This document shows positions 2,106 through 62,881 of a stretch of 64,000 nt of DNA, piece by piece (the first letter of the stretch is position 1; each line of letters starts with the position of its first letter). The position numbers and the translations under genes were made by a program. Source of the stretch: Abditibacterium sp. (GTDB lineage: Bacteria; Armatimonadota; Abditibacteriia; Abditibacteriales; Abditibacteriaceae). The stretch spans positions 3,296,001 to 3,360,000 of the forward strand of contig CBDASK010000003.1 of NCBI GenBank assembly GCA_965199495.1, given 5' to 3'. Below the pieces are notes generated by a model. That model saw nothing but the letters and a program-made list of their open reading frames with translations, was not told the DNA's origin and did not search any database.

Positions 2106-2501
2106 GTGCTTCGGACAATGATTAAGGCCAAGATTCATCGCGCGACGGTGACGCAGGCCGATTTGAATTATGTGGGATCGCTGACCATTGACAAAGAATT
2201 GATGGAAATGTGCGATATTTTGCCCAATGAACAGGTTCACGTTCTCAACGTGACCAACGGCCAGCGCATGGTGACTTATGCCATCGAAGGCGAGCGTGGT
2301 TCGGGCGTGATGTGTCTCAATGGCGCCGCCGCGCGGCACGGTCAAAAGGGCGACGTTGTGATTGTTATTACCTACGCGCATTACACCGACGAAGAGGCGC
2401 GTGGGTTGCAGCCACGCGTTGTGGTTGTTGACGAAAATAACGCGCCAATACCCATGCTTCTCACTGAAAAAGCGGGGGCGATTGCCGTTACCACGCGTTA
2501 A
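2106..2501 (+). CDS. panD: aspartate 1-decarboxylase
   Basis: [21 protein letters not shown] (GS autocleavage site) and LNGAAAR; GTG start. Confidence 0.96.
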
Positions 2502-2521
2502 TTTTTAGAGGTTTATTCGTT

Positions 2522-3214
2522 ATGTCGTTTGAAATGCCACTTTTCCCGCTCAGCGTGGTGCTGTTTCCCGGAATGCCACTGCCGCTGCATATTTTCGAGC
2601 CGCGCTATCGTCTGATGATCGAGCGTTGCCTCGATAACGATAGCACTTTCGGCGTCGCGCAGATCATTGAGGGACAAGAAGGCTACGCCGACACGCGCCC
2701 GGCGCCCATCGGTTGCGCGGCGGAAATCATCGAAGTTTCGCCCTATGCCGACGGGCGTTTGAATGTGCAAACGTTGGGCACGCGGCGCTTCGAGATTTTG
2801 TCGTATCGCGAGCAGGACGATTATCTGGTCGGCACCTGCCAGTGGCTTGAAGATGACAACGACGAAGACGGTTTAGTGCGCGCCTCAATGCGCATTCGCG
2901 GATTGTTGTCGCGCTATTTCGATTCTTTGTCGCTTTCGACGGCTTTGCCCGCCGAACTCGGCGATTTGGACGTGCCGCAGGAACCTTACGCGCTTTCGAT
3001 GTTCATCGCCGCGATTATGACGTTGCCCAACAATCAAAAGCAAACTCTACTGGAAATGACTTCGACCAAGGCCAGATTAGAAGTCGAGGAGTTTTTGCTC
3101 GAACGCGCCGAAATCGTGCATCGCGCCTACGCCGCGCGCGCCGCGCAGGGCGGCGTCGAACCGCCGATTGATAGTAGTCTGGGCCATTACGCGCATTTCG
3201 TTTCGTTGAATTAG
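2522..3214 (+). CDS. LON peptidase substrate-binding domain protein (stand-alone LON N-domain)
   Basis: MPLFPLSVVLFPGMPLPLHIFEPRYRLM signature; no AAA or protease domain. Confidence 0.9.
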   Translation: MSFEMPLFPLSVVLFPGMPLPLHIFEPRYRLMIERCLDNDSTFGVAQIIEGQEGYADTRPAPIGCAAEIIEVSPYADGRLNVQTLGTRRFEILSYREQDDYLVGTCQWLEDDNDEDGLVRASMRIRGLLSRYFDSLSLSTALPAELGDLDVPQEPYALSMFIAAIMTLPNNQKQTLLEMTSTKARLEVEEFLLERAEIVHRAYAARAAQGGVEPPIDSSLGHYAHFVSLN

Positions 3215-3230
3215 GTCGCGCGAATTGCAG

Positions 3231-3268
3231 AAAGGCCGCAATTGCATTTGTGCAATCGCGGCCTTTTT
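3231..3268 (+). terminator. probable intrinsic terminator
   Basis: AAAGGCCGC-ATTGCA..TGCAAT-GCGGCCTTTTT hairpin with T-tract between convergent genes. Confidence 0.7.
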
Positions 3269-3293
3269 CGCTGAGATTTATGCAAATGCAAAT

Positions 3294-3391
3294 GTAGGGT
3301 CAAAACATGTTTTGACCGCGTCGCCAAAGTCCGCGTTTATGTTTTAAAATTGCCGACATTATTGCGCGGTCAAAACATGTTTTGACCCTAC
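3294..3391. repeat. GTAG-type REP doublet (REPIN-like)
   Basis: Perfect 27-bp IR GTAGGGTCAAAACATGTTTTGACCGCG (3294-3320 / 3365-3391); each arm is a GTAG tetranucleotide followed by a palindrome. Confidence 0.85.
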
Positions 3392-3411
3392 GGGGATAAC
3401 TGTGTAATGCT

Positions 3412-5823
3412 TTACTTGTTCGCCTTAAAACGCACGACCGTCACCGAATAAGCCGGAAACGTGTGGCTAAAATTCGGCCCAACGTTATTCAAAATCGTTG
3501 TGACCGGCGCGATTTTGGTTGGGTTCTCGACGGAGTTCTGATCGCTCGGCAAACCGCTCAATACCTGCGCTGTGGCTGTATCGGCCAGCCCGCGCACGCC
3601 TGTCATATTGACGTTCATCGTTTGCGGCGCATCGGAGAAATTGACGGCTTTAAGGAAAATTTCGCCGGTTTGGGTGTTGCGACTGGCGACCGAATAAAAT
3701 GATGAAGGCGCCGCGTCGGTCGCCTCGTTGATGAGTTTGCCGTCGGCGTAGGCGCGAATTTTGTCGCCGCGCACTTCGATTTTGAGGTCATACCAATGAT
3801 TGGATTCGACCGTGAACGGAGAATTGCTGCCGATTTCGCTGGAACTGCCAGCCACGATGCGTTGAATCCGACTGCGCACGTTGCTCCAACCGCCGACGTT
3901 CCACCACAAATAATTATCGGCGTTGCGCACGCGAAACGGAATTAAAAACCCTTCGGCGCCGCCGGTTTTGCGCGCGCGCAGCGTCAAATCGTAGTCCGTC
4001 CAGTTGACATCGCCCACGAACGATTGCGCCGGTTGTTCGCCACTGGTCTGCGCATAAACGCCATTGGCGGTTTTCCAATCGCCTTTATTCGTCTCGAAAC
4101 TGGGCGCGCCGTTCCCAAAATCCTGCGCATATAAAACGCGACCGTCGGGCGCGGTCACTTTGAGGTCGTCGAATTGCGCCTGCGTGTTCCATGTGCCCAC
4201 GCCAACGCGCCCGCCGCTCATGTTTTGCGCAGTTGGCGCGGACGTGATGTTCACCGGCAAAATCGTGTCACCGGTATTTTGAGCGAACATCGTCTGCACA
4301 TAATACGAAGGCGAACCAAACGAATGCAGCGCGTCGTAACCGATGAGATTGGTGCCCCACTGCCAGCTTTTGGGGTTGACGTTGGTAAATAAGGGCGCGT
4401 AAGCCTCCATCATCACATGATCGGAGTTGCGCAGCAAACCGGTCAGCCACGCCGCGTCGCCCAGCGCGGCTTGCATCGTCGGCGTCGGTTCGCCTTCCAT
4501 CGAAGCCCATTCGCCCACGAAAGTTTTCGGGCCTTTGCGGTCGGTTGCGTCGTAATGCGTGGAATCGGCGGCCATCGCGCGTCCGCTCCGATAATAGTGA
4601 TCGTCAACGATATCGGGCGTGCGCCCTTTCACGTCGCCGCGCGTGGCGATAATTTGAATGTCGGGATGTTTGGCTTTAATCGCGTCATAAAAGCGTGCGA
4701 AGCGCGCGTCATAAACGCCCACTTTGTCAAAGAAATCTTCGTTGCCGATTTCGACAAAACGCACTTTGAACGGCGCCGCATGACCATGTTTGGCGCGCAA
4801 TGCGCCCCATTTGGTGTCCGTGCCGCCCGCAAGATATTCGATTTCGTCCAAAGCGTCCTGCACGAGTGGCCCGACATCGGCGTCATCGGGCAGCCACGGG
4901 CGCCCATCGGACACGCCCAAAACCGATTCCATGCCTAAATCTTCGCACCACTGCGCGAATTCCAAAAGCCCCAATCCGTTGCTCGATTTGTAACCCCACG
5001 CGCCCGGCCCAACTTCGCGCTGTTCCAGCGGGCCGATAGTTTTCTTCCACTCGTAATGCCCCGGATCGAGATAGTTGCCGCCCGGATAACGCAAAAACGT
5101 CGGCTTCATCGCGGCCATTTTCTCCATCAAATCCACGCGATTACCGTTGGCCCGGTTTTTATAAGTCGGCGGAAACAGCGAAACCAGCGTCACCCAGACC
5201 GTGCCCGGCGCGCTCGCCCGAATTGCCAAACTGTTCGATTGCGAAGGCGCGATATTCCCCGTTTTCAGCGTGCCCGAATACTTTTTCCACGTCGTCGTCA
5301 ACGCACCCGTGCGCGTCTGAGCGAAGGTGATTTTGCTGACGTTGCTTTCGATGCCCGCGCGTAATTCGCCGTTGAAACCGGGCGCGGCCTTGGCCCAGAA
5401 CGAAACTTGATACGTCGTGTTCGGCTTAACCGGCACGCCCCAAAAACCGTCGTTTTTCACGCCCGCGCCCGCCTGTTGCGCGTCCAAACGCAAACTGTGC
5501 GTCAATGTCGTATCGGGCACGGGCTGCGATTCGTCCAGCGCCATCGTGCCCGCCATGATGTCGGTGAGCGACCAATGGATCGGCGTGGCTGCGTCTTGCA
5601 ATGAGCGATTACACACCAGTTCCGCGTAAAGCCCACCATCAAACGCGTGATTAATTTCTTCAGTCATCATGCCGTAGAAAACCGGGCTGATTACAACGCC
5701 GGGTTTATCGGCGCTAATCGTCAGTTGGCCAGAGTTCGCGCCCTGAGCGTAGATCAACGGAGCGGCGCTTAAAAGCAGCGTCGCCGCCAGTGCAGAAGCG
5801 GAAGCGAAGTGACGTTTAGTCAT
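3412..5823 (-). CDS. secreted alpha-L-arabinofuranosidase (GH51) with CBM-like and inserted beta-sandwich domains
   Basis: Signal peptide; EEINHAFDGGLYAEL, FLRYPGGN, VEIGNE, VDDHYY, FVGEWA and C-terminal FPAYSVTVVR. Confidence 0.9.
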   Translation of the reverse strand: MTKRHFASASALAATLLLSAAPLIYAQGANSGQLTISADKPGVVISPVFYGMMTEEINHAFDGGLYAELVCNRSLQDAATPIHWSLTDIMAGTMALDESQPVPDTTLTHSLRLDAQQAGAGVKNDGFWGVPVKPNTTYQVSFWAKAAPGFNGELRAGIESNVSKITFAQTRTGALTTTWKKYSGTLKTGNIAPSQSNSLAIRASAPGTVWVTLVSLFPPTYKNRANGNRVDLMEKMAAMKPTFLRYPGGNYLDPGHYEWKKTIGPLEQREVGPGAWGYKSSNGLGLLEFAQWCEDLGMESVLGVSDGRPWLPDDADVGPLVQDALDEIEYLAGGTDTKWGALRAKHGHAAPFKVRFVEIGNEDFFDKVGVYDARFARFYDAIKAKHPDIQIIATRGDVKGRTPDIVDDHYYRSGRAMAADSTHYDATDRKGPKTFVGEWASMEGEPTPTMQAALGDAAWLTGLLRNSDHVMMEAYAPLFTNVNPKSWQWGTNLIGYDALHSFGSPSYYVQTMFAQNTGDTILPVNITSAPTAQNMSGGRVGVGTWNTQAQFDDLKVTAPDGRVLYAQDFGNGAPSFETNKGDWKTANGVYAQTSGEQPAQSFVGDVNWTDYDLTLRARKTGGAEGFLIPFRVRNADNYLWWNVGGWSNVRSRIQRIVAGSSSEIGSNSPFTVESNHWYDLKIEVRGDKIRAYADGKLINEATDAAPSSFYSVASRNTQTGEIFLKAVNFSDAPQTMNVNMTGVRGLADTATAQVLSGLPSDQNSVENPTKIAPVTTILNNVGPNFSHTFPAYSVTVVRFKANK

Positions 5824-5902
5824 GAAATTAGTGTGGAGAAGGCATTTATAGTCTATGCTGCCAACCGCATATTTCGGTCTTATTTACCGGCGTGGCTGCT
5901 TT

Positions 5903-7192
5903 TCAGCGCGTCGGCAACTCGACGCGAAACGCGGTGCCGTGGCCTTCTTCCGATTCGACTTCGACGTGCCCACCGTGATTCTCAACGATATGTTTGACAA
6001 TCGCCAGCCCCAAACCCGTTCCACCTTCGCTGCGTGAGCGCGCTTTGTCCACGCGATAAAATCGCTCGAAAACGCGCGGCAAATCGTCGGCGGGGATGCC
6101 GATGCCGGTATCGCTGACTTCTAAAATCGCCGTCGTGCCGTCGTTATTTTCGCTCAGTTTCAGCGCGACTTGCCCGCCTTTGGGCGTATACGAAAGCGCG
6201 TTGTCCAACAAATTGAACGCGACTTGTTCCAAAGCTGCGGCGTCTCCACTCACGATGACGGGCGTGAATTCGCCATTTTGTTCGTCCGGTTGCCAACCGA
6301 TTGCGACGCTGTTGCGCCCGGCTTTGTCGCGCAGACTGTCCACCACGTTACGCACCAATTGATTCAGTTCGACCGGCGCGCGCACCGATTTTTCAGCCGC
6401 TTCGGCGCGCGCCAAATCGAGCAAATCCGAAACGAGGCGCGATAAGCGTTCGGCCTCGGAAACGAGCGGCGGCAGAAAACGCGCGATGAGTTGAGTGTCG
6501 CCCGGCGCGTGCAGCATCGTTTCGGCGGTCGCGCGAATGTTGGCGATGGGCGTGCGCAATTCGTGCGAAGCGTTGGCGACAAAATCGCGGCGCACGCGTT
6601 CGAGGCGGCGCAATTCGGTCATGTCCTGCACGATAGCCACGGCGCCGACTTCGGCGCCCGCGCCCGAATAAACCGGTGCGACGCGCAGAAAAACTTCGCG
6701 GATTTTGGGCGCGTAAAGATGCAATTCCTGCGCGCTCGATTGTCCGTTTTGAAGTGCCGCGCGCATCGCCGCGTCAATGCCAAACGAGGGCAGCGCCTCG
6801 ATTAAACTGGCGCCCAAAACGTCTTCGATGCGCAACGCGAACAACTGCAACGCCGCGTGATTGACGAATCGCAAACGCGCCTGCGAATCCACCACTAAAA
6901 CCGCGTCTTGCAGCGAAGCCAACACATCTTCCAAATCGCGGCGCGCGCGCGCTTGCTCGGTTTGCGATTCTTCCAGAGCCGCGCGTTGCGTAGTCAGGCG
7001 GCGCCACAACGTTTGTTGGTCGGTGGGCAAATTTGCCGTCAGCTCGTTGATTAAGCCATCGTTGCGCGAGGCGTAGGCGGTCAAAATATCGCGTCTCTCC
7101 GCTTCGCGAGCATTGCTGCGTCGCAGAGTTAGCAGCCACGCCGCGCCCAAACCCAACGCCAATGTCCCAAATAATGCGGCCTCAATGTTCAT
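5903..7192 (-). CDS. PAS-domain sensor histidine kinase (PhoR-like)
   Basis: Start reassigned to ATG 7192 (MNIEAA). TM helix, PAS, H-box RDFVANASHELRTP, N-box NLLDNA, DTGIGI, FERFYRVDKARSR, GTGLGLAIVKH. Confidence 0.9.
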   Translation of the reverse strand: MNIEAALFGTLALGLGAAWLLTLRRSNAREAERRDILTAYASRNDGLINELTANLPTDQQTLWRRLTTQRAALEESQTEQARARRDLEDVLASLQDAVLVVDSQARLRFVNHAALQLFALRIEDVLGASLIEALPSFGIDAAMRAALQNGQSSAQELHLYAPKIREVFLRVAPVYSGAGAEVGAVAIVQDMTELRRLERVRRDFVANASHELRTPIANIRATAETMLHAPGDTQLIARFLPPLVSEAERLSRLVSDLLDLARAEAAEKSVRAPVELNQLVRNVVDSLRDKAGRNSVAIGWQPDEQNGEFTPVIVSGDAAALEQVAFNLLDNALSYTPKGGQVALKLSENNDGTTAILEVSDTGIGIPADDLPRVFERFYRVDKARSRSEGGTGLGLAIVKHIVENHGGHVEVESEEGHGTAFRVELPTR

Positions 7193-7281: not shown

Positions 7282-7755
7282 ATGGTTCGCATTTTATTCG
7301 TTTGTCTGGGCAATATTTGCCGCTCGCCGATGGCCGAAGCGATTCTGGTTCATCGCGTCAAAGACGCGGGTTTGTCAAGTCAAATCGAGATAGATTCGGC
7401 GGGCACCGGCGACTGGCACATCGGCGATTCGCCGCACGAAGGCACGCTCCAAATATTGAAAACAAATGGCATCGAACATCCGATGCGTGCGCGTCAAATC
7501 GTCGCGTCAGATTTGGACGAGTTCGATTATTTGATCGTGATGGACGACAAAAACGAACGCGACGTGCGCGCCGTGGCTGCTGCCGGGGACAGGGCACATA
7601 TCGCGCGTTTGTTGGATTATCTGCCTGAAGCCACAGACAAAAATGTGCCCGATCCTTATTTTACCGGCGACTTCGACGCGGTTTACCGGATGGTCAGCGC
7701 GGCGTGCGACAATCTGCTGGAAGCGGTCAAACGAGAACATCAACTGTCAATTTAA
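7282..7755 (+). CDS. low molecular weight protein-tyrosine phosphatase
   Basis: P-loop FVCLGNICRSPMAE, DSAGT and VPDPYF. Confidence 0.95.
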   Translation: MVRILFVCLGNICRSPMAEAILVHRVKDAGLSSQIEIDSAGTGDWHIGDSPHEGTLQILKTNGIEHPMRARQIVASDLDEFDYLIVMDDKNERDVRAVAAAGDRAHIARLLDYLPEATDKNVPDPYFTGDFDAVYRMVSAACDNLLEAVKREHQLSI

Positions 7756-11595: not shown

Positions 11596-13173
11596 TTATC
11601 CAGCAATTCCACGCGTATAAAGACGAGTTTCGGGCGAATTATAAAGATAGTCGTGTGGCACGAAATCGCGGCCCGGCAGCGCGAGCGGATGCGCCTTACC
11701 GTAAAACCAATGCTTCCCGTAGAAAACAGTGGGCAACTTTTTGAGAAATATCGCGGCCTCGCCATTGGGATGAAGCCGCAACTGTTCGCGATACTCGAAC
11801 TCGGAAATCGCGAATAACGCTGTTTTTGACGCGCGCATTTTCTGGACATCAAATCCGGTGACGACCGTGCCCGCAACGGGAACATTCGAGCCGACCGGTT
11901 GAAACGGCGGCGTGTAGAACCACGGATTGTTGACCAGCCCCAGAGTTTCTTTGCCTCGCCACGAGCGAGAGGCATTGCCGATTCGGTCGCGCGAATCCAC
12001 AGATACGAACGGCCACAAAATTCCCGGCACCGAAACCGTAATAATCCAAATTAATGCCGCGCCCCAAATCTGCGGTTTCGGCAAACGCGACGCCGCCCAA
12101 ACTGCTGTCACGCACAACAATGGCGCGATGGGAAACAGATAGCGCATGAAGCGCACCTGCGAAAATCCGAGCGACAAAAAGAACAATCCGACGAACAATA
12201 AAACCGGCCAGAATGGTCTTTCGCGCGCCGCCAAAATAACGCCGACAACAGCAGCCACGGCGAGCGGCGCTGTCATCACGAAAGGCAGATTAAACGTGAG
12301 ATGATACCACCAACCGTTGCCTGTGCCCTGAAAAATATCGCCCGAACCTAAGCGCGGATGCGTAAGCAGTTCAAACGAGATTCCGGTTTGGACTTGTTCG
12401 CTCGGATTGCCCCAGAACTCGGCGGGCGCAAGCAACGCGTAGGGCGTCGAAATTAGAAAACCCAATAGCGCCACAATCGGCGCCAGAACAATTAAGCCCC
12501 AGCGATTTTTCAATTCGGGCAACAACCCCGCGCACGCCATCGGTACGACGACGACGAGGCCCGCGTTGTATTTGGTGCCCGCCGCCAAGCCCGCGACCAA
12601 AGCCGCGATAACTAACGCTTTGGCGGTTTGCGCGCGCAGCGAAAGCCAAACGCAGAGCGCCACGAAAAACGTCGCCGGAATATCCACCGTCGCATAATGC
12701 GAATGTTGGACTAAACCCGGCAACAGCGCCACCAAAACTCCGGCGACAATCGCGCCACGTCGCAAGCCCAATTGGCGCGCGATGCCCCACGTTAAAGCCG
12801 CCGTGGCTGCTCCCGTCGCGACCGAGAATAATCGTCCTGCGAAAATAATATCGCGAATTATCGGCCACGGATACGACGCGTCGGCCACGTTCGTTGTTAA
12901 TCCGAAAACGGCGAGAAACTGATAAATAATCCAAGTCGCGTAAATCGAGAGCGACGGATAATTGAAAAAATGCGGATTGAAATCGCCCTGCAACAGATGC
13001 ACGACGGCGCCGACGATTTGATTCACCGATTCGTCGGGATGATACGAATAATAACGCTCGGCATTGGGCAAACCCCACGTCAAACCGATGGCACGCACAA
13101 CTAAGGCCAGCGCGAAAATGAGCGCGGGCGCGAGTAAGCGGCGTGATTTGTCGGGCGAAGTGAGAGTTGCCAT
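11596..13173 (-). CDS. membrane GT-C glycosyltransferase (GT39/ArnT-like)
   Basis: HPDE in the first loop, NPHFFNYPS, SHYATVD, AGTKYN and RYLFP; many TM helices. Confidence 0.8.
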   Translation of the reverse strand: MATLTSPDKSRRLLAPALIFALALVVRAIGLTWGLPNAERYYSYHPDESVNQIVGAVVHLLQGDFNPHFFNYPSLSIYATWIIYQFLAVFGLTTNVADASYPWPIIRDIIFAGRLFSVATGAATAALTWGIARQLGLRRGAIVAGVLVALLPGLVQHSHYATVDIPATFFVALCVWLSLRAQTAKALVIAALVAGLAAGTKYNAGLVVVVPMACAGLLPELKNRWGLIVLAPIVALLGFLISTPYALLAPAEFWGNPSEQVQTGISFELLTHPRLGSGDIFQGTGNGWWYHLTFNLPFVMTAPLAVAAVVGVILAARERPFWPVLLFVGLFFLSLGFSQVRFMRYLFPIAPLLCVTAVWAASRLPKPQIWGAALIWIITVSVPGILWPFVSVDSRDRIGNASRSWRGKETLGLVNNPWFYTPPFQPVGSNVPVAGTVVTGFDVQKMRASKTALFAISEFEYREQLRLHPNGEAAIFLKKLPTVFYGKHWFYGKAHPLALPGRDFVPHDYLYNSPETRLYTRGIAG

Positions 13174-36879: not shown

Positions 36880-37019
36880 GAGTGTTTGTTTGCGGGCGCG
36901 AAAATGCGCATCCTTCTAAAGTAAAGCAGTTGGGGCAATTTGTCCGCCAACAACCGCTAATTTTAAGCACGCACCGGACAATTGTCATCTCTCTCGAATT
37001 AAGCGATAATTTTATTTCA

Positions 37020-51473: not shown

Positions 51474-52019
51474 ATGAGCATTGCGACAAAAAATGGCGAC
51501 GGCGGCCAGACACGATTAATTTTTGGCGACACGGTTTCCAAAGCCGATTTACAGGTCGAAGCCTACGGCACAATTGACGAACTCAACTCGTTTTTGGGTT
51601 TGGCGCGCGCGCTGTGCGACGAGCCGAAAACCAAAGATTGGCTCGAATCGCTGCAGCGCGACACTTTTATTGTGGGCGCCGAGTTAGCCACGCCCGCCGA
51701 CAAGCGCGACAAACTCAAGCAAACTGTGACTCCCGAAGTGACAGCGCAACTCGATTCAATCGTCGCCGAAATTGAAGAAATGCCCGGTTTATTAGACGAT
51801 TGGGCGTTGCCCGGCGCATCGGGCGGCGGCGCCGCGATTGATTGCGCGCGCGCCGTGGCTCGTCGCGCCGAACGTTGCGTTGTGCGCTTGCGCGATGCCG
51901 ACGTCGACTTGGTAAGCGATGAATTGCTGCGTTATCTCAATCGTTTATCGGACGTAATTTGGTTGCTGGGCCGTCGCTACGAAATGCGGAGCGGCGTTAA
52001 CGGCGCCTTACGGATTTAG
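51474..52019 (+). CDS. cob(I)alamin adenosyltransferase, PduO type
   Basis: Motifs IATKNGDGGQT, EAYGTIDELNS, RAVARRAER and YLNRLSD. Confidence 0.92.
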   Translation: MSIATKNGDGGQTRLIFGDTVSKADLQVEAYGTIDELNSFLGLARALCDEPKTKDWLESLQRDTFIVGAELATPADKRDKLKQTVTPEVTAQLDSIVAEIEEMPGLLDDWALPGASGGGAAIDCARAVARRAERCVVRLRDADVDLVSDELLRYLNRLSDVIWLLGRRYEMRSGVNGALRI

Positions 52020-52623: not shown

Positions 52624-53415
<792 letters not shown>

Positions 53416-53521: not shown

Positions 53522-54208
53522 TTAATCCACCCACAACAAGCGCCCGCAACCTTCGCAGGTGGGAAATTCTTTCGTTTTGGCTTCGCGCAGTGTGAACGGC
53601 AAAATTTCGGCGCCGCACGCGCTGCACGCGCCGCCCTCGACATGAGCCACGGCGACGCCGTGATGGCGTTTGTAACCATCGGCGTAGTGTTCCCTGTCCG
53701 AAGGCGAGAGTTTCGCGATGACCGGCGCGCGCGCGGCCCGTTTGTCGGCGACGCGTTTGTCCAGCAACTCGGTTTGCGCTTTGAACTCGGCCTCGATTTG
53801 CCGCGCGTTGGCGCGCGCGGCTTCGACCTGTTTTGTTTCGGCCTCGACTTTCGCCGCCAGCGTTTCGCCTTCGTCCATCGCGGTCAAAATTGTTTCGTCC
53901 AGTTCGCCGCGCATCCGGCTCAAACCTTCGATGTCGCGTTCGAGCGCGCTAATTTCGTGGGCGCTCGAAACCGTCATGATGCGTTTTTTCTGGCGCTCGA
54001 TTTTGGTTTCGGCGGCTTCCAAATCGCCCTCGGCCTTGGCGCGCGTGGCTGCAACGATTGCGGCGGCGCTTTGGGTTTGCGCGAGTTGCGTTTCCAATTC
54101 GGCCAAAGTCGCACGGGCGGAGGTGCCATCGTCCAAACGCGCTTTTTCGCGCGTGGCGTTTTGGATGGCGGAATCGAGAAGTTGCAGATCGAGCAGGGCA
54201 CGGTTCAT
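53522..54208 (-). CDS. coiled-coil C4 zinc-ribbon protein (DUF164-like)
   Basis: LLDLQLLD, long coiled coil, CSAC..CEGCGRLL; downstream of nif3, a common gene order. Confidence 0.88.
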   Translation of the reverse strand: MNRALLDLQLLDSAIQNATREKARLDDGTSARATLAELETQLAQTQSAAAIVAATRAKAEGDLEAAETKIERQKKRIMTVSSAHEISALERDIEGLSRMRGELDETILTAMDEGETLAAKVEAETKQVEAARANARQIEAEFKAQTELLDKRVADKRAARAPVIAKLSPSDREHYADGYKRHHGVAVAHVEGGACSACGAEILPFTLREAKTKEFPTCEGCGRLLWVD

Positions 54209-54237: not shown

Positions 54238-55350
54238 TCACGCGCAATCGCCAAATGGATTATGCACTTTTTGCTCGCGAATCACGCGCAAACCGCCGAT
54301 ATTTTCTAACGCGCTCGCCATTAACGGCACCGCCTTGGTTTCGGTGGCGGCGTGCGTCACGTCAAGGAGAGCCACGCCGCCCGCGCGCGCTTTGAGCGCG
54401 TCGTGATGTTTGATGTCGGCGCACACGAAAACAGTGCCGGGCGCCAAATGGCCGATGAAACTCGCGCCACTTCCCGGACTGCACGCGACGGTTTCAACAT
54501 CCGCGAAATCATCGGGCACGACGACGCGAATCGAAGGCGGATTGAGTTTTTCGCGCACGGTTTCGATCCACGAATCCAAACTCTGCCGCTCGACTTGGCC
54601 GATACGAAGTGGCCCGTAACTTCCGGTTTTGTCGTTGTTGAGCAAAGCCGTGACATTATAAGCGATTTCTTCGTAAGGATGCGCGGCGCGCAACGCCGCG
54701 ACAACGGCGGGCCAATCGGCTTCGAGCGCGATGATTTCGAGTTGCAGTTCGGCGACTTGCTCGCGATTGCTGACGGTGCCAACCGTGGGATTGGCGCCTT
54801 CGAGCGGGCGAAACGTGCCCTGCCCCGCGCTGACAAACGACGCTTCATCGTAAAGCACGCCAATTTTTCCGGCGCCCGCGTTCCACATCGCATTTCGCAC
54901 CGCGTCCAAATTTTCTGGCGGAACGTAAGTCACGATGCGCACTAACTTCGGCGCGCCCGAAGCGGCGCCGACGCGCACATCGCACAGGCCCAACTGCGCG
55001 GCGAGTGCGTCGCCCAAAGCGTGGGGCGGCGACGCGCCATCGAGCGCGCTGTGGACGCAAATCAGAGCCATATTCTCGCGCACGATGCGAGCCGCCAATC
55101 GCGCGGTCGGATCGGCGTAATCGAGCGATGCAAGCGGACGAAACAATAACGGATGATAAGCGATAATCGCGCCCGCGCCCGCCGTGGCTGCTGCGTCGAG
55201 CGCGGCATCGGTGACTTCGTAGCAAACGTAAACTGATTCGATTCCGGCGTTTTTATCGCCGATATGAAGACCAACGCTGTCCCATTTTTCCACGCGATTC
55301 CACGGGAAATGTCGGTTCAGTTCGTCGAGCAAATTTTGAATCGTGGGCAT
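54238..55350 (-). CDS. Nif3-like dinuclear metal center protein with PII-like insertion
   Basis: Start ATG 55350; WDSVGL, YHPLLF, HSALD, GAGKIG, HPYEE, GSGAS, HAATE. Confidence 0.9.
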   Translation of the reverse strand: MPTIQNLLDELNRHFPWNRVEKWDSVGLHIGDKNAGIESVYVCYEVTDAALDAAATAGAGAIIAYHPLLFRPLASLDYADPTARLAARIVRENMALICVHSALDGASPPHALGDALAAQLGLCDVRVGAASGAPKLVRIVTYVPPENLDAVRNAMWNAGAGKIGVLYDEASFVSAGQGTFRPLEGANPTVGTVSNREQVAELQLEIIALEADWPAVVAALRAAHPYEEIAYNVTALLNNDKTGSYGPLRIGQVERQSLDSWIETVREKLNPPSIRVVVPDDFADVETVACSPGSGASFIGHLAPGTVFVCADIKHHDALKARAGGVALLDVTHAATETKAVPLMASALENIGGLRVIREQKVHNPFGDCA

Positions 55351-55486: not shown

Positions 55487-56269
55487 CTAAATTTGGTTTT
55501 TCGCTTCATTCCACAGTTCGTCCCATTGCGCTTCGCTCAGCGATTCCAAGTCCCAGCCACGCCGCTGGGCTTGGGCTTCCATTTTCTCGAAGCGACCGCG
55601 AAATTTGCGATTGTTATCGCGCAAAGCCATTTCGGGATTGATGTCGCGCCAGCGCGCGATGTTGACGATGGTAAACAACAAATCTCCCAGCTCTTCGGCG
55701 ACGCGTTCGGGTGTTTCGTGGCGCAAAGCATCCTCGACTTCGGCGACTTCCTCGCGCAGTTTGTCCCAAACTCCGGCTTCGTCGGGCCACTCGAAACCGA
55801 CTTTGGCGGCGCGTTTCGAGATTTGCAGCGCCGCCAAAAGCGCGGGCAATTCGGTCGGCACATTCGCCAAAATCGAAGTTTGCGCTTGGCCCGCTTCGGC
55901 TTTTTCCTGCGCTTTAATCGCGTCCCAATTGGCTTTGACCGTCTCGGCATCGTCGGCGCGAGCGTCGCCGAAAATATGCGGATGGCGCCGCACCAGTTTT
56001 TCGTTGATGCCGCGCGTCACATCGTCAATCGTAAAGTCGCCGTTTTCCTGCGCCAACTGCGCGTGAAACACGACCTGCAACAGCAAATCTCCCAACTCCT
56101 CGCACAAATGCGATTTATCGCCGCTTTCGATCGCGTCCAAAACTTCGGCGCTTTCTTCGATGAGATACGGGCGCAAGGTTTCGTGGGTTTGCTTCAAATC
56201 CCACGGGCAACCGCCGTCGGGCGCGCGCAGTTGCGCCATGATTTGCGTCAATCGTTCAAATTCGGACAT
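55487..56269 (-). CDS. mazG: nucleoside triphosphate pyrophosphohydrolase
   Basis: Motifs GCPWD..QT, EELGDLLLQVVFH, RRHPHIF, GFEW and EELGDLLF. Confidence 0.95.
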   Translation of the reverse strand: MSEFERLTQIMAQLRAPDGGCPWDLKQTHETLRPYLIEESAEVLDAIESGDKSHLCEELGDLLLQVVFHAQLAQENGDFTIDDVTRGINEKLVRRHPHIFGDARADDAETVKANWDAIKAQEKAEAGQAQTSILANVPTELPALLAALQISKRAAKVGFEWPDEAGVWDKLREEVAEVEDALRHETPERVAEELGDLLFTIVNIARWRDINPEMALRDNNRKFRGRFEKMEAQAQRRGWDLESLSEAQWDELWNEAKNQI

Positions 56270-56374: not shown

Positions 56375-57706
56375 CTACGGCGTGGCTGGTGCGGGCGCCG
56401 CGTTGGTCGCGGGCGCTTCGGGCGCGGGCGCCGCCGAATTCGCGGCGGGTGCGGCGTTGGCGTCTGTGCCAGTCGCGGGCGCGGCGTTAGCATCCGCGCC
56501 GCCAGCGGTCGGCGGAACGGGCGTGGGTATGACTTTGTATTTTTCGGCGACAGTGGTATACGCCGGGTCTTCAATTTTGACGGTGCCTTTGGAGCGCAGG
56601 TCAGTCAAGATATTCTGCTGCATTGGCTGCAAAATGGCCGTCAACACATCGCGCAAAGGCGGCGGCGCTATCGGCGTCATTGATGGTGGCGGCGCCATTG
56701 GATTTTCCTGCATCTGCTGCATTTGCTGTTGCTGCTGCTGTTGCTGTTGCTGCTGCTGAATCGCGGTGCTGGTGCGCTTGAGCGTTTCGGTAAACGGCGG
56801 GTTCTGCGGATTTTTCTTGACCTCTGCCATTGCGACTTGTGCCATTTTGTAGTCGGTCTCGATTTGCGGTTTTAGAGCGGCGAAATCGGCTTTGGTCGGC
56901 TCCTGCTTGTCGCTGATATGAAACAACACATAAATCGGCGGCTGGCCGGGGCGGATAGCGATTTCTTTGGGATCGGTCGTGCCGCCTTTGGGCAAACTGG
57001 CGATGGCTTTAGCTTCGGCCTCGCCGTAGACCGCGCCCAGCGTGTCAACTGGCGCGAGTGCATCGCCCGCGTTGGAATTTTTGGCGAGCGGATCGCTCGA
57101 TTTCTGTTGCTCGGCGAGCAGAGCCTCGAAAGTTTTGGTCTTGCCTTTGAGCGCGCGACTCATGGCGTCGGCGCGCGCCTTGGTCGAAGTCAGCAAGGTG
57201 CCGACTTTGACTTTGGCTGGGTCTTCGTAATACGATTTGTAGGTGGTGAAGAACTTCTGCAACTCGTCATCGCTGACTTTCACGTCTTTAGTCAGCACTC
57301 TTTGCGTCATCAAATCGCGGCGTATCTGCAAGTTGAGAATATCCGCCAACTTGGGATTTTTCGCCAAAGTTCCGATCAAACTGGGATCGGTTTTCTTGCG
57401 ACGCTCTAACTCTTCGGCAACTTCAGCATCGGAAACCGTGATGCCATTATCTTTGGCATTTTGAGTCAGCAATTGAGTATCAATGAGAATCGGCAATATC
57501 TGTTCGCCACCCTGAGCTTCCAGAATTTTGTTGAGATCGGTGCGCGTGATGGCCGTGCCGCCAACAGTCGCCAGCGTGTCGCCGTTGCTACCGCCGCCGG
57601 TGGCTGCTGTGCCACCGACGCCGCCTTTGTTGCCGCATCCGGCCAGAGCAAGGGCCAATCCGATGGCCGCTAACGGCTTCCATGCCGTTTTGATTTGTTT
57701 GTTCAC
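56375..57706 (-). CDS. PrsA/SurA-like foldase lipoprotein (degenerate parvulin) with a polyQ insert
   Basis: Lipobox LALAGC; ATVGG..IT, GITVSDAEV, VKVSDDELQKFF; Q12 tract. Confidence 0.78.
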   Translation of the reverse strand: MNKQIKTAWKPLAAIGLALALAGCGNKGGVGGTAATGGGSNGDTLATVGGTAITRTDLNKILEAQGGEQILPILIDTQLLTQNAKDNGITVSDAEVAEELERRKKTDPSLIGTLAKNPKLADILNLQIRRDLMTQRVLTKDVKVSDDELQKFFTTYKSYYEDPAKVKVGTLLTSTKARADAMSRALKGKTKTFEALLAEQQKSSDPLAKNSNAGDALAPVDTLGAVYGEAEAKAIASLPKGGTTDPKEIAIRPGQPPIYVLFHISDKQEPTKADFAALKPQIETDYKMAQVAMAEVKKNPQNPPFTETLKRTSTAIQQQQQQQQQQQQMQQMQENPMAPPPSMTPIAPPPLRDVLTAILQPMQQNILTDLRSKGTVKIEDPAYTTVAEKYKVIPTPVPPTAGGADANAAPATGTDANAAPAANSAAPAPEAPATNAAPAPATP

Positions 57707-57782: not shown

Positions 57783-58538
57783 TTAATCGTCGGCCAGAGT
57801 TTCGTCCGACATCGAAAAATTAGCGACGACGTTCACTACGTCGTCATCTTCTTCGAGTGCGTCCAGCAATCTTAACAGTTTGCGCGCGTCCTCGCCTTCG
57901 ATTTCGATCACCGTATCCGGCACCAAAGCCGATTCGGCGCTCTGAATCGGAAAGCCCGCCGTTTCCAAAGCGCTTTCGACGGCGTCCAACGCACCGAGCG
58001 GCGTCGTCACGGTAAAGGCATCTTCGTCATTCGCGATGTCGCTGGCGCCCGCTTCGATGGCGCTTTCAAAAAGCGCCTCTTCGTCAGTCGTCTTGCCATC
58101 ATCAGCCACGGCGTCAACCACGATTTGGCCCAGACGCTGGAACTGCCACGCGACCGACCCGCCTTCGCCCAAGCTGCCGCCGTTTTTGTTGAACAGCGAG
58201 CGAATGTTGGCGACGGTGCGATTGCGATTATCGGTTTCGGCCTCGACCAAAACCGCGATGCCGCCCGGCCCGTAGCCTTCGTAGGTGATCTCTTCGTGGT
58301 TTTCCGACGAGAGTTCGCCGGTGCCTTTTTGGATGGCGCGCTTGATATTTTCGGCGGGCATCGAACCGGCGCGGGCTTTGTCGTAGGCCAACCGCAAGCG
58401 CGGATTGGAATCGGGGTCGCCGCCGGATTTGGCGGCGACGGTGAGGTCGCGCGAAAGCTTGGCAAACAGCTTGGCGCGTTCTTTATCCGCTTTGCCTTTG
58501 TGCAAGCGGATGTTTTTCCATTTGGAATGTCCTGCCAT
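57783..58538 (-). CDS. YebC/PmpR family protein
   Basis: Motifs MAGHSKWKNI, YEGYGPGG, TDNRNRT and LEEDDDV. Confidence 0.96.
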   Translation of the reverse strand: MAGHSKWKNIRLHKGKADKERAKLFAKLSRDLTVAAKSGGDPDSNPRLRLAYDKARAGSMPAENIKRAIQKGTGELSSENHEEITYEGYGPGGIAVLVEAETDNRNRTVANIRSLFNKNGGSLGEGGSVAWQFQRLGQIVVDAVADDGKTTDEEALFESAIEAGASDIANDEDAFTVTTPLGALDAVESALETAGFPIQSAESALVPDTVIEIEGEDARKLLRLLDALEEDDDVVNVVANFSMSDETLADD

Positions 58539-58814: not shown

Positions 58815-59708
58815 ATGAAAAAACCGGTTTTGCTCATCTTTGTCAACGCGATGATTTTGATCGTCGTGTTCGCTCTGTTGGCTCAATCGCTATTTATTGT
58901 GCAGCGCATCGCGCAGACGAGTGATGTCAGTGGAATCGTCGAAGTACAGCGCCGGGGCAAAGGCGAGTTTCAAGTTTTAGGCAACAATCAAACTGTGGCC
59001 GTCGGCGATGTCGTGCGCACCGGAGCCAACGGCCACGTCGAGTTCCTCTGGGCCGACCAAACGCGCTGGAAACTGATGCCCGGCTCGCAACTGACGGTCG
59101 CCAACGCCACGATAAATGCGGCCAAACACGCCGAAAACGCGTGTTTCCAATTGGACGAGGGCAAGTTATTTGTGCGCATTGTCAAGCCAATTCAGGCCGG
59201 TTCGTCGTTTGAAGTCAGCACGCCCAACGCCACGGCGAGGGTGACGGGCACGGTTTTCAGCATCGAAGTTCAACCCGGCGGCGCGACCTGCGTCGAATCT
59301 TACGCTGGGCAAGTAAATATGGAAAGCGGGGGCCATCACGCTTTGGTGATGGCGGGCACGGCGGGCGTCACTGGCCCCGATGCGATTGAGATGATGCCGA
59401 TGTCGGGCGCCGATTTTCGCGCGCAAGCCGACTTGGTTCGTCCCAATCTGAGCGCGCGCGCCCAAGCTCTCAAAGGCGCGGCGGCGTTTGTCACCGGCTC
59501 GACCGAAGCGGGCAACCTTGTCAAAATCAACGGCAAGCGCGCTTTGGTTCTGGGCAACGGCGGTTTCGGTCGTCGCTGCACTTTGGAACCGGGCCTCAAC
59601 CAATGGACGATTATCGCGACCGATAAACACGGCGCGCAATCGCAAGTGTGTCGCGCGCTGAACTATGACGCCAGCGCGGGCACGGCGCGCGTGGCTGCTT
59701 GCGGGTGA
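58815..59708 (+). CDS. FecR-domain protein with C-terminal Ig-like domain
   Basis: N-terminal TM; GDVVRTG, FEVSTPNATARVTGT; Ig-like VTGSTEAG..INGK..LEPGLN...ATD. Confidence 0.8.
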   Translation: MKKPVLLIFVNAMILIVVFALLAQSLFIVQRIAQTSDVSGIVEVQRRGKGEFQVLGNNQTVAVGDVVRTGANGHVEFLWADQTRWKLMPGSQLTVANATINAAKHAENACFQLDEGKLFVRIVKPIQAGSSFEVSTPNATARVTGTVFSIEVQPGGATCVESYAGQVNMESGGHHALVMAGTAGVTGPDAIEMMPMSGADFRAQADLVRPNLSARAQALKGAAAFVTGSTEAGNLVKINGKRALVLGNGGFGRRCTLEPGLNQWTIIATDKHGAQSQVCRALNYDASAGTARVAACG

Positions 59709-59764
59709 ACGGGATTTGGCGCGACATCTGGAAATTTTTCTTCTATCAATTCGGCCAATTCGGC

Positions 59765-59949: not shown

Positions 59950-60085
59950 ATCTATCGCCATTAACACGCAACGCAAATTCTCACTATTCTTCTGATTGCT
60001 GTGGTTTTTTGTGCCCGCGCGCGTCACACTGATTGGTTCTTCCTTTTTGGAGAACGATTTACGCGGGGCCAAAATCCCGGCTGAT

Positions 60086-61423
60086 ATGAAAAAAGCTCTC
60101 GAACCTCTAATTCTTTCGTGGCGCGTGCGCGAACTGCGCAATCGCATCCTCTTCGTAATGGGCGCCATCATGGTTTACGTGTTGGCGCTCCACGTCCCAA
60201 TTCCAAACGTTGACCATGCCGCGCTCAAAAAGCTGTTCGCGCAAAGCGGCGGCGTGCTGGATTTTATTGACATTTTCGGCGGCGGCGCCCTGCGCAAACT
60301 CTCGATTTTGGCGTTGGGCATCATGCCTTATATCACGTCGTCCATTATCTTTCAGGTCTTGACAATTGCCTTTCCCTACTTCAAAGATTTGCAAAACGAA
60401 GGCGAATATGGCCGCCGCAAAATGGCGCAGTGGACGCGTTGGGCTGCGATTGGTCTGACCTTGATTCAGGCGGTTGTGGCGACCAAGGCGTTTCAGGCGC
60501 CCGGCTTTGGCATTCTGGCGCCCGGTCTGCCGATCTTCTTCGAGTCGGTTTTGTCCTTGACGGCAGGCACGATGTTCCTGATTTGGCTGGGCGAGCAGAT
60601 GACCACGCGCGGCGTGGGCAACGGCATTTCGTTCATCATCTTCGCGGGCATTGTGGCGCGTTTGCCGCTGCAAATCGGCGAAATGGTTAAAACCGGCGCG
60701 ATTTTCCAGTTGTTCTTGCTGTTCGTCGTGTTCGTCGCGACGATCTGGATTATCATCACGGTCACGCAGGGCGAGCGTCGCATTCCGGTGAAATACGCGC
60801 CTCGTCAAGCCGGACAGCGTATGGTGCAGGGCCAGCGTTCGTATTTGCCGCTCAAAATGGCGGCGGCGGGCGTGATTCCGATCATCTTCGCGATTTCGAT
60901 TGTTTTGTTTCCCGGACAAATCGCGACGTGGTATCTGGGCGCGCATCAAGCCGACGTAGGCACAACCATGTTCAATTTCGCGCAAAGTGTGCAGCAATGG
61001 TTTTCACCGCGTAGCTGGTTCGCCTCGTTGTGCTATGGCGGTCTGGTGATGCTGTTCACCTATTTCTACACGGCAGTGTTGTTCGACGTGCGCGATTTGG
61101 CCGACAACCTCAAGCGTTATGGCGGACAAATTCAAGGCTATGCGCCCGGACGCCCGACCGAAATTTTCATCAACCGCGTGTTGACGCGCATCACTTTCGC
61201 GGGCGGTTTGTTCCTCGCTTTGGTCGCGCTGATGCAATGGTGGATGCCGACGATTTTGCAGTTGCCCCAAACGTCGGGCGCCGCCGGTTCGCTCTTGGTT
61301 GGCGGCACCAGTTTGCTGATTGTGGTCGGCGTGGCTCTTGAGATCATGCAGAACTTAGATCAGCAACTCAAGATGCGCCAATACGAAGGTTTCGCCAATA
61401 AAACGGGCAAAGGCCGTTTGTAA
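60086..61423 (+). CDS. secY: preprotein translocase subunit SecY
   Basis: Start ATG 60086; LSILALGIMPYITSSI, WLGEQMT.RGVGNGIS, GERRIPV, AGVIPIIFA, GGTSLLIVVGV. Confidence 0.96.
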   Translation: MKKALEPLILSWRVRELRNRILFVMGAIMVYVLALHVPIPNVDHAALKKLFAQSGGVLDFIDIFGGGALRKLSILALGIMPYITSSIIFQVLTIAFPYFKDLQNEGEYGRRKMAQWTRWAAIGLTLIQAVVATKAFQAPGFGILAPGLPIFFESVLSLTAGTMFLIWLGEQMTTRGVGNGISFIIFAGIVARLPLQIGEMVKTGAIFQLFLLFVVFVATIWIIITVTQGERRIPVKYAPRQAGQRMVQGQRSYLPLKMAAAGVIPIIFAISIVLFPGQIATWYLGAHQADVGTTMFNFAQSVQQWFSPRSWFASLCYGGLVMLFTYFYTAVLFDVRDLADNLKRYGGQIQGYAPGRPTEIFINRVLTRITFAGGLFLALVALMQWWMPTILQLPQTSGAAGSLLVGGTSLLIVVGVALEIMQNLDQQLKMRQYEGFANKTGKGRL

Positions 61424-61446
61424 ATTTAAAATTCCGCCGTTAATTT

Positions 61447-61514
61447 AAGGCTCAAGGGCTACGGCAAAAGCGTGTTTTTGGACGCGTTCTTGCCATAACT
61501 CTTGAGCCTTTTTG
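61447..61514 (+). terminator. degenerate hairpin with T-tract after secY
   Basis: AAGGCTCAAG...CTTGAGCCTTTTT imperfect long stem. Confidence 0.5.
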
Positions 61515-61576
61515 TTATCCCAAATATTTTTCCAACTTTCCCTTTGCTTTTGTCGTTTTAAAGTTCGTCTTCTCCT

Positions 61577-62881
61577 ATGAATATCCTTGGCCTTGGCCGT
61601 GCTTCCGATAAAGACTTGGAATCCGAAGCGGAAAACGTGGCGCCGGTAAACCCAAACGCCGATGTCATCACGCCCGATGACATCGTGGCGGGCGATGCAG
61701 CCACGGCGGGCGCGTTGCTCGCGGGCGAACTCGAAATCAGGCCGTTCACGCAATACGAGAATATGCGGCGGTTTCTGTTTTTATGCTTCGGCATATTGGG
61801 CGCGGCGCTGCTTTTATTTGCTTTGGGCAAGTTCGTGATGTTGCTGGTCGTGGTTTTATTTTTGTCCACCGTTCTGAACCCCGCCGTCGTCTGGCTGGAA
61901 AAGAGGCGTCTGCCGCGCGGACTGGCCGTCGTTTTGGTGATGCTGGGACTTATCGGAGTGATGGTGGGCGTCGGGTTTTTGGTGGTGCCGCCGATTATCG
62001 AGCAGAGCAGTTCATTGGCCACGCAAAAAGATGTTTACAGCCGCAACATCGCCGATCAACTGCAAATCGTTCTCGACCGTTTTCCTCAACTCAAATCGCT
62101 CTTGCCCGCCGGTGTCAGAAATGCCGATGATTTGAAAGATGTCGGCAATGCGCTGTCTCCGCAAATGGAAAATTGGTTCAAAACGCACTCGGACGATTTG
62201 TCCAAATGGGCGGTCGCGGCAGTCAGCGCGACGCTGAGTGGTGCGCTCACGTTTTTGCTGGCGCTGTTGCTCACGACGTTTATTTTGCTCAATCCGGCGC
62301 CGCTCGTTTCGGGTTTTTTGTGCGCCGTGCCCTCTCGCTACCGCAACGCGGCAGGCCGCTCGATTGGGCGCATCCAAAATCAAATGCTCGCGTGGATTCG
62401 CGCGACTTTGATCAACGGTTTGATTACCGGCGTTTCCACGGGATTGTTATTGTGGTGGATCGGCGTCAAACCGGCGTTGGTTTTTGGCGCGCTCGCCTTC
62501 TTTGGCGAATTCATTCCAAATATTGGCCCGTTTATCGCGGCAGTTCCGGCATTGTTTGTGGCGGCGGGCATGGGCGGCAAAACGTTCTTGCTGACGGGCG
62601 CGGCGATTTTGTTTGTGCAGCAGGTCGAAAGCAATCTTTTGGTGCCGTTCATCATGGGCAAACAATTGGAGTTGCACCCGTTTTCGATCATCTTTTTCGC
62701 GCTTGCCTTCGGCAGTTTGTTCGGGTTGGCGGGAGCGATTTTGGCGGTTCCGGCGGCGGCAGTGGTCAAAGTGTTGTTCGATGAATTTTACCTGATGCCC
62801 AATCGTGTGCCCGAACCCGCCATCGCGCACAGCAGCGAAGTTTTGGTGCGCGAGCGCGAGTGGCAGGCGCCGCAAAATTAA
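61577..62881 (+). CDS. AI-2E family transporter (PerM-like)
   Basis: Motifs LNPAV..LE, FIPNIGP, QQVESNLLVP.IMG and LHP..G.LFG..GAILAVP. Confidence 0.92.
   Translation: MNILGLGRASDKDLESEAENVAPVNPNADVITPDDIVAGDAATAGALLAGELEIRPFTQYENMRRFLFLCFGILGAALLLFALGKFVMLLVVVLFLSTVLNPAVVWLEKRRLPRGLAVVLVMLGLIGVMVGVGFLVVPPIIEQSSSLATQKDVYSRNIADQLQIVLDRFPQLKSLLPAGVRNADDLKDVGNALSPQMENWFKTHSDDLSKWAVAAVSATLSGALTFLLALLLTTFILLNPAPLVSGFLCAVPSRYRNAAGRSIGRIQNQMLAWIRATLINGLITGVSTGLLLWWIGVKPALVFGALAFFGEFIPNIGPFIAAVPALFVAAGMGGKTFLLTGAAILFVQQVESNLLVPFIMGKQLELHPFSIIFFALAFGSLFGLAGAILAVPAAAVVKVLFDEFYLMPNRVPEPAIAHSSEVLVREREWQAPQN

Follow-up and report, generated by a model that had tools for sequence, protein, structure and literature searches.

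The question raised by this stretch of 64,000 nucleotides from Abditibacterium sp. (hereafter the window; G000:C3:3296001-3360000, where G000 is the host genome and C3 its chromosome) is whether a short non-palindromic word recurring throughout it, CGVCGTGGCT, is a tag by which the cell recognises its own DNA, comparable to the DNA uptake sequences (DUS) of Neisseria and the uptake signal sequences (USS) of Haemophilus, or a site of another kind. The assembly comprises 4.81 Mb in three contigs (the chromosome, the plasmid-like C1, and the phage-like C2), and its SecY is 92-94% identical to SecY of Abditibacteriales bacterium / Abditibacterium sp., with which it forms a joint clade (support 100/100). 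An earlier sequence-only reading had proposed a DUS-like signal from copies of the 9-mer CGTGGCTGC, and a recount reproduced all of its figures: 25 exact 9-mers (13 on the plus strand and 12 on the minus strand; 0.80 expected from dinucleotide shuffles), 41 copies of the 8-mer CGTGGCTG (i.e., 16 on top of the 9-mers), CG at -3/-2 in 18 and A/T at +1 in 22 of the 25 copies, and 24 of the 25 within called genes, across four frames. In a leave-one-out matrix, the informative unit is CG[ACG]CGTGGCT, with 1.3-1.9 bits per position for C-G-V-C-G-T-G-G-C-T (V 0.36), followed by G (0.82), C (0.48), and W (0.29) as graded 3' extensions, while flanks outside the word reach at most 0.36 bits. The window contains 38 such sites between 183 and 61708 (17 on the plus and 21 on the minus strand; 0.82 expected). 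The word is a chromosome-wide feature and not confined to positions 2408-61705, since C3 carries 2,799 copies (1,392 on the plus and 1,407 on the minus strand). The most frequent 10-mer of the genome is CGCCGTGGCT and the most frequent 12-mer GCAGCCACGGCG. An Rfam search of the window gave no match.

Concerning the coding context (gene calls stem from a hexamer-trained caller, with 3,891 genes and 83% coding, such that coding figures are approximate), 2,563 coding copies of CGVCGTGGCT were found, compared to 119.4 in a within-gene synonymous shuffle (20 runs) and 386.2 in a tripeptide-context shuffle (10 runs); for the 9-mer, 1,619 copies compare to 94.5 and 335.3, respectively. The sequence-only reading had named loss of the enrichment under shuffles of this kind as a refutation; the enrichment persists under both protein-preserving shuffles, and a codon or peptide artefact is thereby ruled out. 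Ala-Val-Ala is written GCC GTG GCT in 647 of 1,559 cases, though GCT makes up 10% of the Ala codons, and motif codons are used in 356 of 812 DVA and 525 of 1,238 ATA tripeptides. VAA occurs 1,827 times versus 841 times for AAV, and VAA, AAT, DVA, and ATP are each about twice as frequent as their reversals. Such tripeptide doubling is reported for DUS/USS (PMC2817400; here and below, papers are cited from those parts that were available). Intergenic sites are less dense (0.37 vs. 0.59 per kb) and still enriched (154 vs. 1.4 expected). Sense (1,423 vs. 60) and antisense copies (1,138 vs. 58) are each enriched about 20-fold; together with the polarity across oppositely transcribed genes described below, this rules out a transcription-linked or RNA-level signal. 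The 16S gene holds a single core match, which presumably is ordinary 16S sequence, the region being too short to judge depletion in ribosomal RNA genes.

The word had further been described as strand-neutral, which is borne out at the scale of the chromosome: 1,388 of the 2,799 sites lie in leading orientation (p 0.68; split at dnaA and its antipode), or 1,391 with a GC-skew split. Across the same replichores, GGGCAGGG, which we take to be the FtsK-orienting polar sequence (KOPS), is skewed 201:24. The replichores are therefore real and the absent skew of the word is meaningful; KOPS, a Chi-type skew, and lagging-strand priming are ruled out.

Depletion in mobile and acquired DNA was likewise found. 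At chromosomal density, 14.6 copies would be expected on C1 (0 found), 38.3 on C2 (2 found), 28.5 in the prophage (7 found), 22.4 in the integrative and conjugative element (ICE; 2 found), and 83.4 in an island at 1.12-1.26 Mb (23 found). The longest gaps between words on the chromosome measure 8-23 kb, and judging from their protein sequences they mostly correspond to integrative elements, prophage, a defence/restriction island, low-GC polysaccharide genes, and the CRISPR locus. The mobile elements avoid GTAC, CTAG, GGACC, CTCGAG, and TTCGAA to about the same degree as the chromosome and appear adapted to the restriction systems of the lineage, yet without having gained the word. A mutational or methylation bias acting throughout the cell is hard to reconcile with this, as is a passport that benefits mobile DNA. 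In Neisseria, ICEs are marked by an atypical DUS distribution (PMC7371117).

Genome-wide, many restriction-like sites (CTAG, GTAC, GGACC, CGGCCG, CTCGAG, CCCGGG, and TTCGAA) are extremely avoided (observed/expected, O/E, 0.01-0.11), as they are in the mobile elements. Fragments of the 3' part of comM at 1.121, 1.166, and 1.197 Mb lie in the island region (G000:C3:1120703-1255865), upstream of the intact comM at 1.254 Mb, and in the family member G020 comM is split by about 29 kb (G020:C1:2145624-2176085); both are consistent with elements integrating into comM, as known from competent species (PMC12378983). The CRISPR array at G000:C3:2766487-2775199 has 131 repeats, one spacer perfectly matching the chromosome at 593119-593155, and one with a 26-bp match at the edge of the prophage region; its spacers, 4.75 kb in all and too short to be informative, are free of the motif, and neither C1 nor C2 is matched by any of them. 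The CRISPR repeat also accounts for a strongly skewed word near 2.77 Mb.

The arrangement of sites relative to each other proved to depend on strand. Same-strand pairs are rare below 300 bp (O/E 0.04-0.19) and recover only gradually (0.34 at 400-600 bp, 0.60 at 600-800 bp, 0.80 at 800-1,000 bp, about 1 past 1.5 kb), whereas opposite-strand pairs are near expectation from 60 bp on. With close pairs removed, 107 same-strand pairs at 40-600 bp were observed against 393 expected, and 443 opposite-strand pairs against 428 (p 1e-43). Of 462 genes with exactly two sites, 370 carry one site per strand. The same-strand deficit is seen inside genes (70 observed vs. 310 expected) as well as for pairs spanning two genes, be these co-directional (29 vs. 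55) or oppositely transcribed (5 vs. 37), and is gone at 3-6 kb. Control 6-8-mers of like abundance (1,528 in number) have a median same-strand ratio of 1.2, and the 12 with the lowest ratios all derive from the motif. Purging of direct repeats is ruled out by a 3.5-fold excess of generic 10-mer direct repeats nearby and by the equally strong repulsion between copies that differ at V (0.17-0.37). Thus, the word is polar: it is scarce within about 1 kb of a same-strand copy and indifferent to copies on the opposite strand. Searches of the open-access literature showed, at the level of listings, no paper that treats the spacing of uptake sequences by orientation (subscription papers or supplements could), and we regard this same-strand-only avoidance as a new observation. 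Spacing is even within each strand (coefficient of variation, CV, of the gaps about 0.75) and not across strands, which the sequence-only reading had missed. Close pairs involve 143 of 2,783 sites, and 75 of 78 of them are inverted. Convergent pairs (plus, then minus) at 750-850 bp number 64 versus about 42 on G000:C3 (p 0.001 in one of 40 bins), which may be chance.

In a toy birth-death model, intended as illustration and not as proof, with the 1-kb reach taken from the data, the observed pattern arises only if the benefit of a site saturates per strand; saturation per fragment depletes both orientations, and an additive benefit depletes neither. Evenness on single strands only is hence not predicted by a simple rule of one site per fragment, and the earlier uptake reading is weakened and corrected to that extent. 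For known uptake sequences, three genomes were sampled as controls (G099 with AT-DUS, 420 kb; G152 with GTCGTCTGAA, 280 kb; G606 with USS, 488 kb), amounting to 1.19 Mb, with singletons pooled and several ranges examined that were chosen after looking. Same-strand and opposite-strand pairs (observed/expected) number 33/64.5 and 71/66.4 at 40-400 bp, 2/10.8 and 18/11.1 at 40-100 bp, 5/18.0 and 23/18.5 at 100-200 bp, and 26/35.7 and 30/36.7 at 200-400 bp, the opposite-strand counts possibly being inflated by wide-loop hairpins. Below 200 bp, 7 same-orientation pairs of unpaired sites were seen versus 28.8 expected, and beyond 400 bp there is no deficit. DUS/USS therefore share the sign of the same-strand deficit, at short range only.

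Within the family, 27 genomes were compared, of which three bear the word, seven bear AGTAC-based words, and 17 bear neither. VCGTGGCTG is iterated in G000 (2,956 copies), G011 (2,548), and G004 (3,426), the other 24 genomes having 94-432 copies. The matrix of G011 is the same as that of G000, whereas the dialect of G004, GGACGTGGCTGGTGTC, is shifted and longer; in G004, 80 of 241 cores belong to close pairs, which are mostly inverted. The conservation in orthologues that had been put forward as a check was found against G011 (86% identity), where 70 of 95 cores (74%) are retained compared to 30-64% for seven control 7-mers, and not against G004 (80% identity; 54 of 228, 24%, below the 26-43% of controls). 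Few of the differences between species have a gap close by (14 of 174 and 3 of 25), most being ungapped. The polarity recurs when G004, G011, and G017 are pooled (40-1,000 bp: same-strand 62/96.6, opposite-strand 114/105.4; p 0.0009). In sum, the word is a DNA-level feature, is polar and specific to the core chromosome, and differs between relatives mostly by substitution.

The AGTAC-based words are iterated in five of six members of genus g6 and both of g3, with 3,000-9,000 matches each. They are mostly palindromic, AGTAC(T)-centred, 10-24 bp long, evenly spread at about one per kb, and resemble the highly iterated palindrome HIP1 (G020, G022, G024, G042, G017, G014, G018; example loci L137-L141, L013-L016, L172-L178, L190-L191). 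The word of G020 is WTCGAGTACTCGAW (about one per kb, gap CV 0.57), that of G014 CTGCAAGTACTTGCAG, and that of locus L013 AAAGTACTTT. The unit of G017, AGTACGGTCGA, is non-palindromic and often stands head-to-head, giving a longer palindrome. Among a phylum sample of 60 genomes, searched for the palindromic pattern only, no such word was found save in the family member G020, and de novo scans of 8 of the 17 family genomes with neither word (40-82 kb each) gave no iterated 8-mer. The reverse complement of the word, AGCCACGGCG, resembles AGTACGGTCG of G017, and G000 strongly avoids GTAC; one might speculate on a common origin of the two, with loss of the GTAC restriction site. Dialects and overlapping dyad pairs are also reported for the DUS of Neisseriaceae (PMC3630211). 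Local clusters of GAGTACTC occur in genomes with another or no dialect (G017:C4:98442-112303 and G005:C98); they were probably acquired from a relative that bears the palindrome, or else reflect contamination in binning. In family members (L004, L012, and L018-L021), tandem heptamers such as ACTCAAA and GATTGAC form intergenic inverted arrays that are reminiscent of the heptamer repeats of cyanobacteria.

These comparisons bear on three alternatives. It is extremely improbable that the word is a by-product of codon or peptide bias, of a copied element of the repetitive extragenic palindromic (REP) or miniature inverted-repeat (MITE) type, or of purged close direct repeats, and for G000 this is already refuted: most coding copies do fall into two frames, xVAA and AATx, and the close pairs of G004 with their similar arms could be REP-like copies, but the word survives both shuffles, the shared flanks, insertion, and intergenic bias of REP/MITE elements are not found in G000, 10-mer direct repeats are in excess nearby, and few species differences are gapped.

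Very unlikely, in our view, is a methylation mark or HIP1-like, methylase-linked site, where an asymmetric site, methylated on one strand, would label each strand for mismatch repair or methylation-dependent uptake. Asymmetric sites that are hemimethylated would require coverage per strand, G000 has several methyltransferases, the relatives iterate palindromes with a 6-bp AGTACT core as HIP1 holds methylase sites (PMC13756078), and C. jejuni tells DNA apart by methylation (PMC12378983). Yet the consensus, graded across 10-17 bp and shifting from species to species, is unlike a methylase site; two of the N4/N6 methylases inspected adjoin (unannotated) genes that by eye look restriction-enzyme-like; and if methylation or repair were biased throughout the cell, the plasmid and phage DNA residing there would be expected to carry the word too, which they do not. 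The C-terminus of MutL, by our reading a degenerate one of the endonuclease type, argues against methyl-directed repair.

A site of chromosome maintenance under ordinary selection (replication restart or priming, nucleoid or condensin loading) seems distinctly unlikely. It would agree with a word that is specific to the chromosome and evenly spaced per strand, and whose spacing resembles the Okazaki fragment scale of about 1 kb; HIP1 periodicity has been read as chromosome structure (PMC5861425). However, the word is unskewed in replichores that KOPS shows to be well defined (201:24), which excludes lagging-strand priming, the eight scanned family genomes without an iterated 8-mer indicate that the family lives without such a word, sites turn over between G000 and G004, and the chromosome tolerates gaps of 10-23 kb.

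We lean towards the explanation that CGVCGTGGCT(GCW) is a self-DNA tag whose copies have built up through natural transformation under molecular drive, as is presumed for DUS/USS. A sequence-preferring protein somewhere in the path from uptake to recombination (at the tip of the type IV pilus, at the ComEA/ComEC channel, or at a cytoplasmic single-strand or recombination step) would favour the strand or direction carrying a readable word, and tagged alleles would replace untagged ones through homologous recombination. The spread of a new site would depend on the extra transformation gained. Were a site to license no more than its own strand or direction, another copy on that strand would add nothing and an opposite copy a full unit, so that one copy per strand per about 1 kb would suffice; per-strand licensing of this kind would give the observed same-strand-only spacing. 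Words that overlap their own reverse complement would converge on palindromes, which serve both strands at once. In N. gonorrhoeae, single-stranded DUS shows a strand preference (as cited in PMC12061091).

Genes for uptake are present. G000 carries ComEC, DprA, ComM, ComEA, and secretins, two PilX-like proteins of about 1,300 aa each, and, as read by eye, what looks like a pilB-pilT-pilC-pilD cluster with prepilins. The sequence-only reading had cited comEA and a pilin-like gene, both of which are in the window. The former does not discriminate the motif-bearing genomes; the latter encodes a DUF1559 prepilin, of which the genome has about 14, and is not ComP. As the competence genes were also found in motif-less relatives wherever searched, they permit uptake without supporting it. 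ComEA, the PilX-like protein, DprA, ComEC, ComM, secretins, and MutL were rejected as clade-specific readers, all being found in motif-less genomes as well, and a protein atlas search with the PilX-like protein returned only unnamed or PilX_N/DUF clusters.

Several points weigh against accumulation through transformation. ComEA was matched in 26 and the PilX-like protein in 25 of the 27 family genomes, most of which lack the motif, and ComEC, DprA, and ComM also occur in motif-less genomes. ComP was found in none of four family genomes searched, with the Neisseria-like control G099 positive. Retention of sites in G004 is below that of control words, the polarity in G004 and in G011 taken singly falls short of significance, and the deficit in the DUS/USS controls is clear below 200 bp only, in 1.19 Mb and post hoc ranges. 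In H. influenzae, uptake is reported to be independent of USS orientation (PMC1939737), and two USS within 100 bp gave no higher uptake (PMC7811141); under such a saturation rule for close USS, the toy model yields avoidance in both orientations, which is not seen here. Sites in G000 are rich in coding DNA (91.5% of sites vs. 83.4% coding), while DUS/USS are scarcer in genes than expected (PMC2817400). The earlier proposal of a DUS/USS-like signal is thus supported in part: the enrichment, the missing skew, the mobile depletion, the conservation in G011 with mostly ungapped differences, the tripeptides, and the dialects all agree with it, whereas the findings on comEA, the pilin, and the per-strand spacing weaken or amend it.

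Same-strand-only spacing is also predicted directly by a Chi-like polar site for double-strand-break repair or recombination, where a nuclease-helicase translocating from a DNA end would read one orientation, such that a separate copy would be required for either direction every 1 kb or so. A putative reader is a 1,421-aa protein with a PD-(D/E)XK nuclease and a DNA2/Upf1-like SF1B helicase (G000:C3:4111365-4115630; L097:6368-10630, P0001), with 22 close homologue clusters at 64-100% identity. It is matched in 5 of 27 genomes (G000, G004, G011, where it is in two pieces with a stop, G017, and G016), among them all three CGTGGCT genomes and the one with the non-palindromic unit AGTACGGTCGA; for HIP1, too, a partly Chi-like action has been proposed (bioRxiv 10.1101/2024.09.10.611283). 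On the other hand, the three CGTGGCT genomes form one clade and count once, G016 has two DNA2-like genes and no iterated 8-mer in 82 kb, the locus of a 39% homologue has no iterated word in 24 kb, and the six genomes with palindromic motifs gave no match. Hits from a metagenome scan were mostly distant Upf1-like helicases, with no member of the clade among them. A RecB/AddA-type helicase (RecBCD, AddAB, or AdnAB) was found in none of G000, G004, and G011 (one UvrD each) nor in G020 (one UvrD and one sub-threshold hit), the genomes being 87-95% complete, yet is present in the motif-less G006. The leading-strand skew of Chi is absent as well. We consider a Chi-like role unlikely, and the DNA2-like protein, given its imperfect co-occurrence with the word, remains a lead only. 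The Chi-like site and the transformation tag would merge if the word were read in the cytoplasm during transformation.

Within the window, pattern matches to CGVCGTGGCT on the plus strand are located at 183..192, 5581..5590, 5888..5897 (the sole intergenic one of the 25 9-mers), 7569..7578, 12799..12808, 19510..19519 (in proA), 23896..23905, 27710..27719, 29712..29721, 33009..33018, 34802..34811, 47035..47044, 51851..51860, 55180..55189, 56378..56387, and 61327..61336 (in secY). On the minus strand, they are at 1840..1849, 4445..4454, 6635..6644, 7134..7143, 12253..12262, 15479..15488 and 16952..16961 (both in lon), 19003..19012, 20164..20173 (in proA), 22218..22227, 26345..26354, 28542..28551, 33681..33690, 37658..37667 (in comEA), 38705..38714, 42033..42042, 46849..46858, 53645..53654, 54370..54379, 55555..55564, 58104..58113, and 61699..61708. 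Matches to the CGTGGCTGC 9-mer without the 5' CG are found at 2408..2416 (in panD), 4890..4898, and 24632..24640 on the minus strand, and at 37285..37293 (in comEA), 48842..48850, 54044..54052, and 59690..59698 on the plus strand. As context, comEA (SLBB and helix-hairpin-helix) occupies 36882..37967 and the DUF1559 prepilin-type protein 52624..53415, both on the plus strand. Inverted pairs at 17949/18032, 15237/15321, and 59799/59907 belong to two REP-like, mostly intergenic repeat families with about 100-190 seed matches apiece across G000. The carB reading frame at 48551-50188 (545 aa) matches the C-terminal half only of the large-subunit model, i.e., CarB is split.

A wider proposition, possible but doubtful, is that Abditibacteriaceae have their own strand-polar self-DNA recognition with a reader unrelated to ComP, yielding DUS-like words (CGVCGTGGCT; AGTACGGTCGA) as well as HIP1-like palindromes. 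Reading would then take place either on the single strand as it enters or during recombination, and the palindromes would be two overlapping polar sites. If true, one strand-specific drive would have led both to DUS/USS and to HIP1, and the deficit at short range in DUS/USS genomes would be an overlooked trace of polarity in the classic systems. Self-recognition in transformation is described through sequence tags in Neisseriaceae and Pasteurellaceae and through methylation in C. jejuni (PMC12378983); an uptake tag in Abditibacteriota would have originated independently and would have another reader. The orientation-resolved spacing test costs little, applies to any genome, separates additive, per-fragment, and per-strand rules, and suggests that DUS/USS themselves are partly polar. 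Palindromic and non-palindromic words in one family offer a comparative handle on the long-open purpose of HIP1. In practice, the word flags foreign islands, and it may be needed in constructs for transforming motif-bearing strains.

Searches of the open-access literature showed, at the level of listings, no paper about iterated words in Abditibacteriota (subscription papers or supplements could include one). Among known systems, the word of G000 seems to resemble most the self-DNA recognition tags of Neisseria and Haemophilus: all are non-palindromic words of 9-12 bp, at about 0.6 per kb, equal on both strands and evenly spaced, with tripeptide doubling in the genes they occupy (into which they were apparently written by substitution), depletion in mobile DNA, and dialects among relatives, and marked by inverted close pairs and a same-orientation spacing deficit, with competence machinery present (here also in motif-less relatives).

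There are also differences. The word belongs to another phylum and is unrelated in sequence; it is enriched in coding rather than in intergenic DNA, has few close pairs (143/2,783), and shows polar exclusion up to about 1 kb instead of about 200 bp. The DUS of Neisseriaceae have the ComP receptor and eight dialects, and no ComP was found in the family genomes searched; DUS/USS have frequent intergenic inverted pairs and are under-represented in coding DNA, neither of which applies to G000. The word thus seems to work like DUS/USS without being a member of the group. Nor is it HIP1, Chi, or KOPS. Like HIP1 (GCGATCGC) of cyanobacteria, which is kept by selection and has recently been linked to transformation (PMC5861425, bioRxiv 10.1101/2024.09.10.611283, PMC13756078), it is hyper-abundant within and between genes, but it is non-palindromic, polar, and of unrelated sequence, and of the methylases present none could be assigned as cognate; the palindromic form of HIP1 is found instead in the relatives, with their AGTACT-centred palindromes of 10-16 bp at about one per kb. 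Like Chi (RecBCD/AddAB) and KOPS (FtsK), the word is polar, non-palindromic, and apparently read in one orientation, whereas it has no replichore skew and no RecB/AddA-type enzyme was found, the KOPS of G000 being a separate, skewed word.

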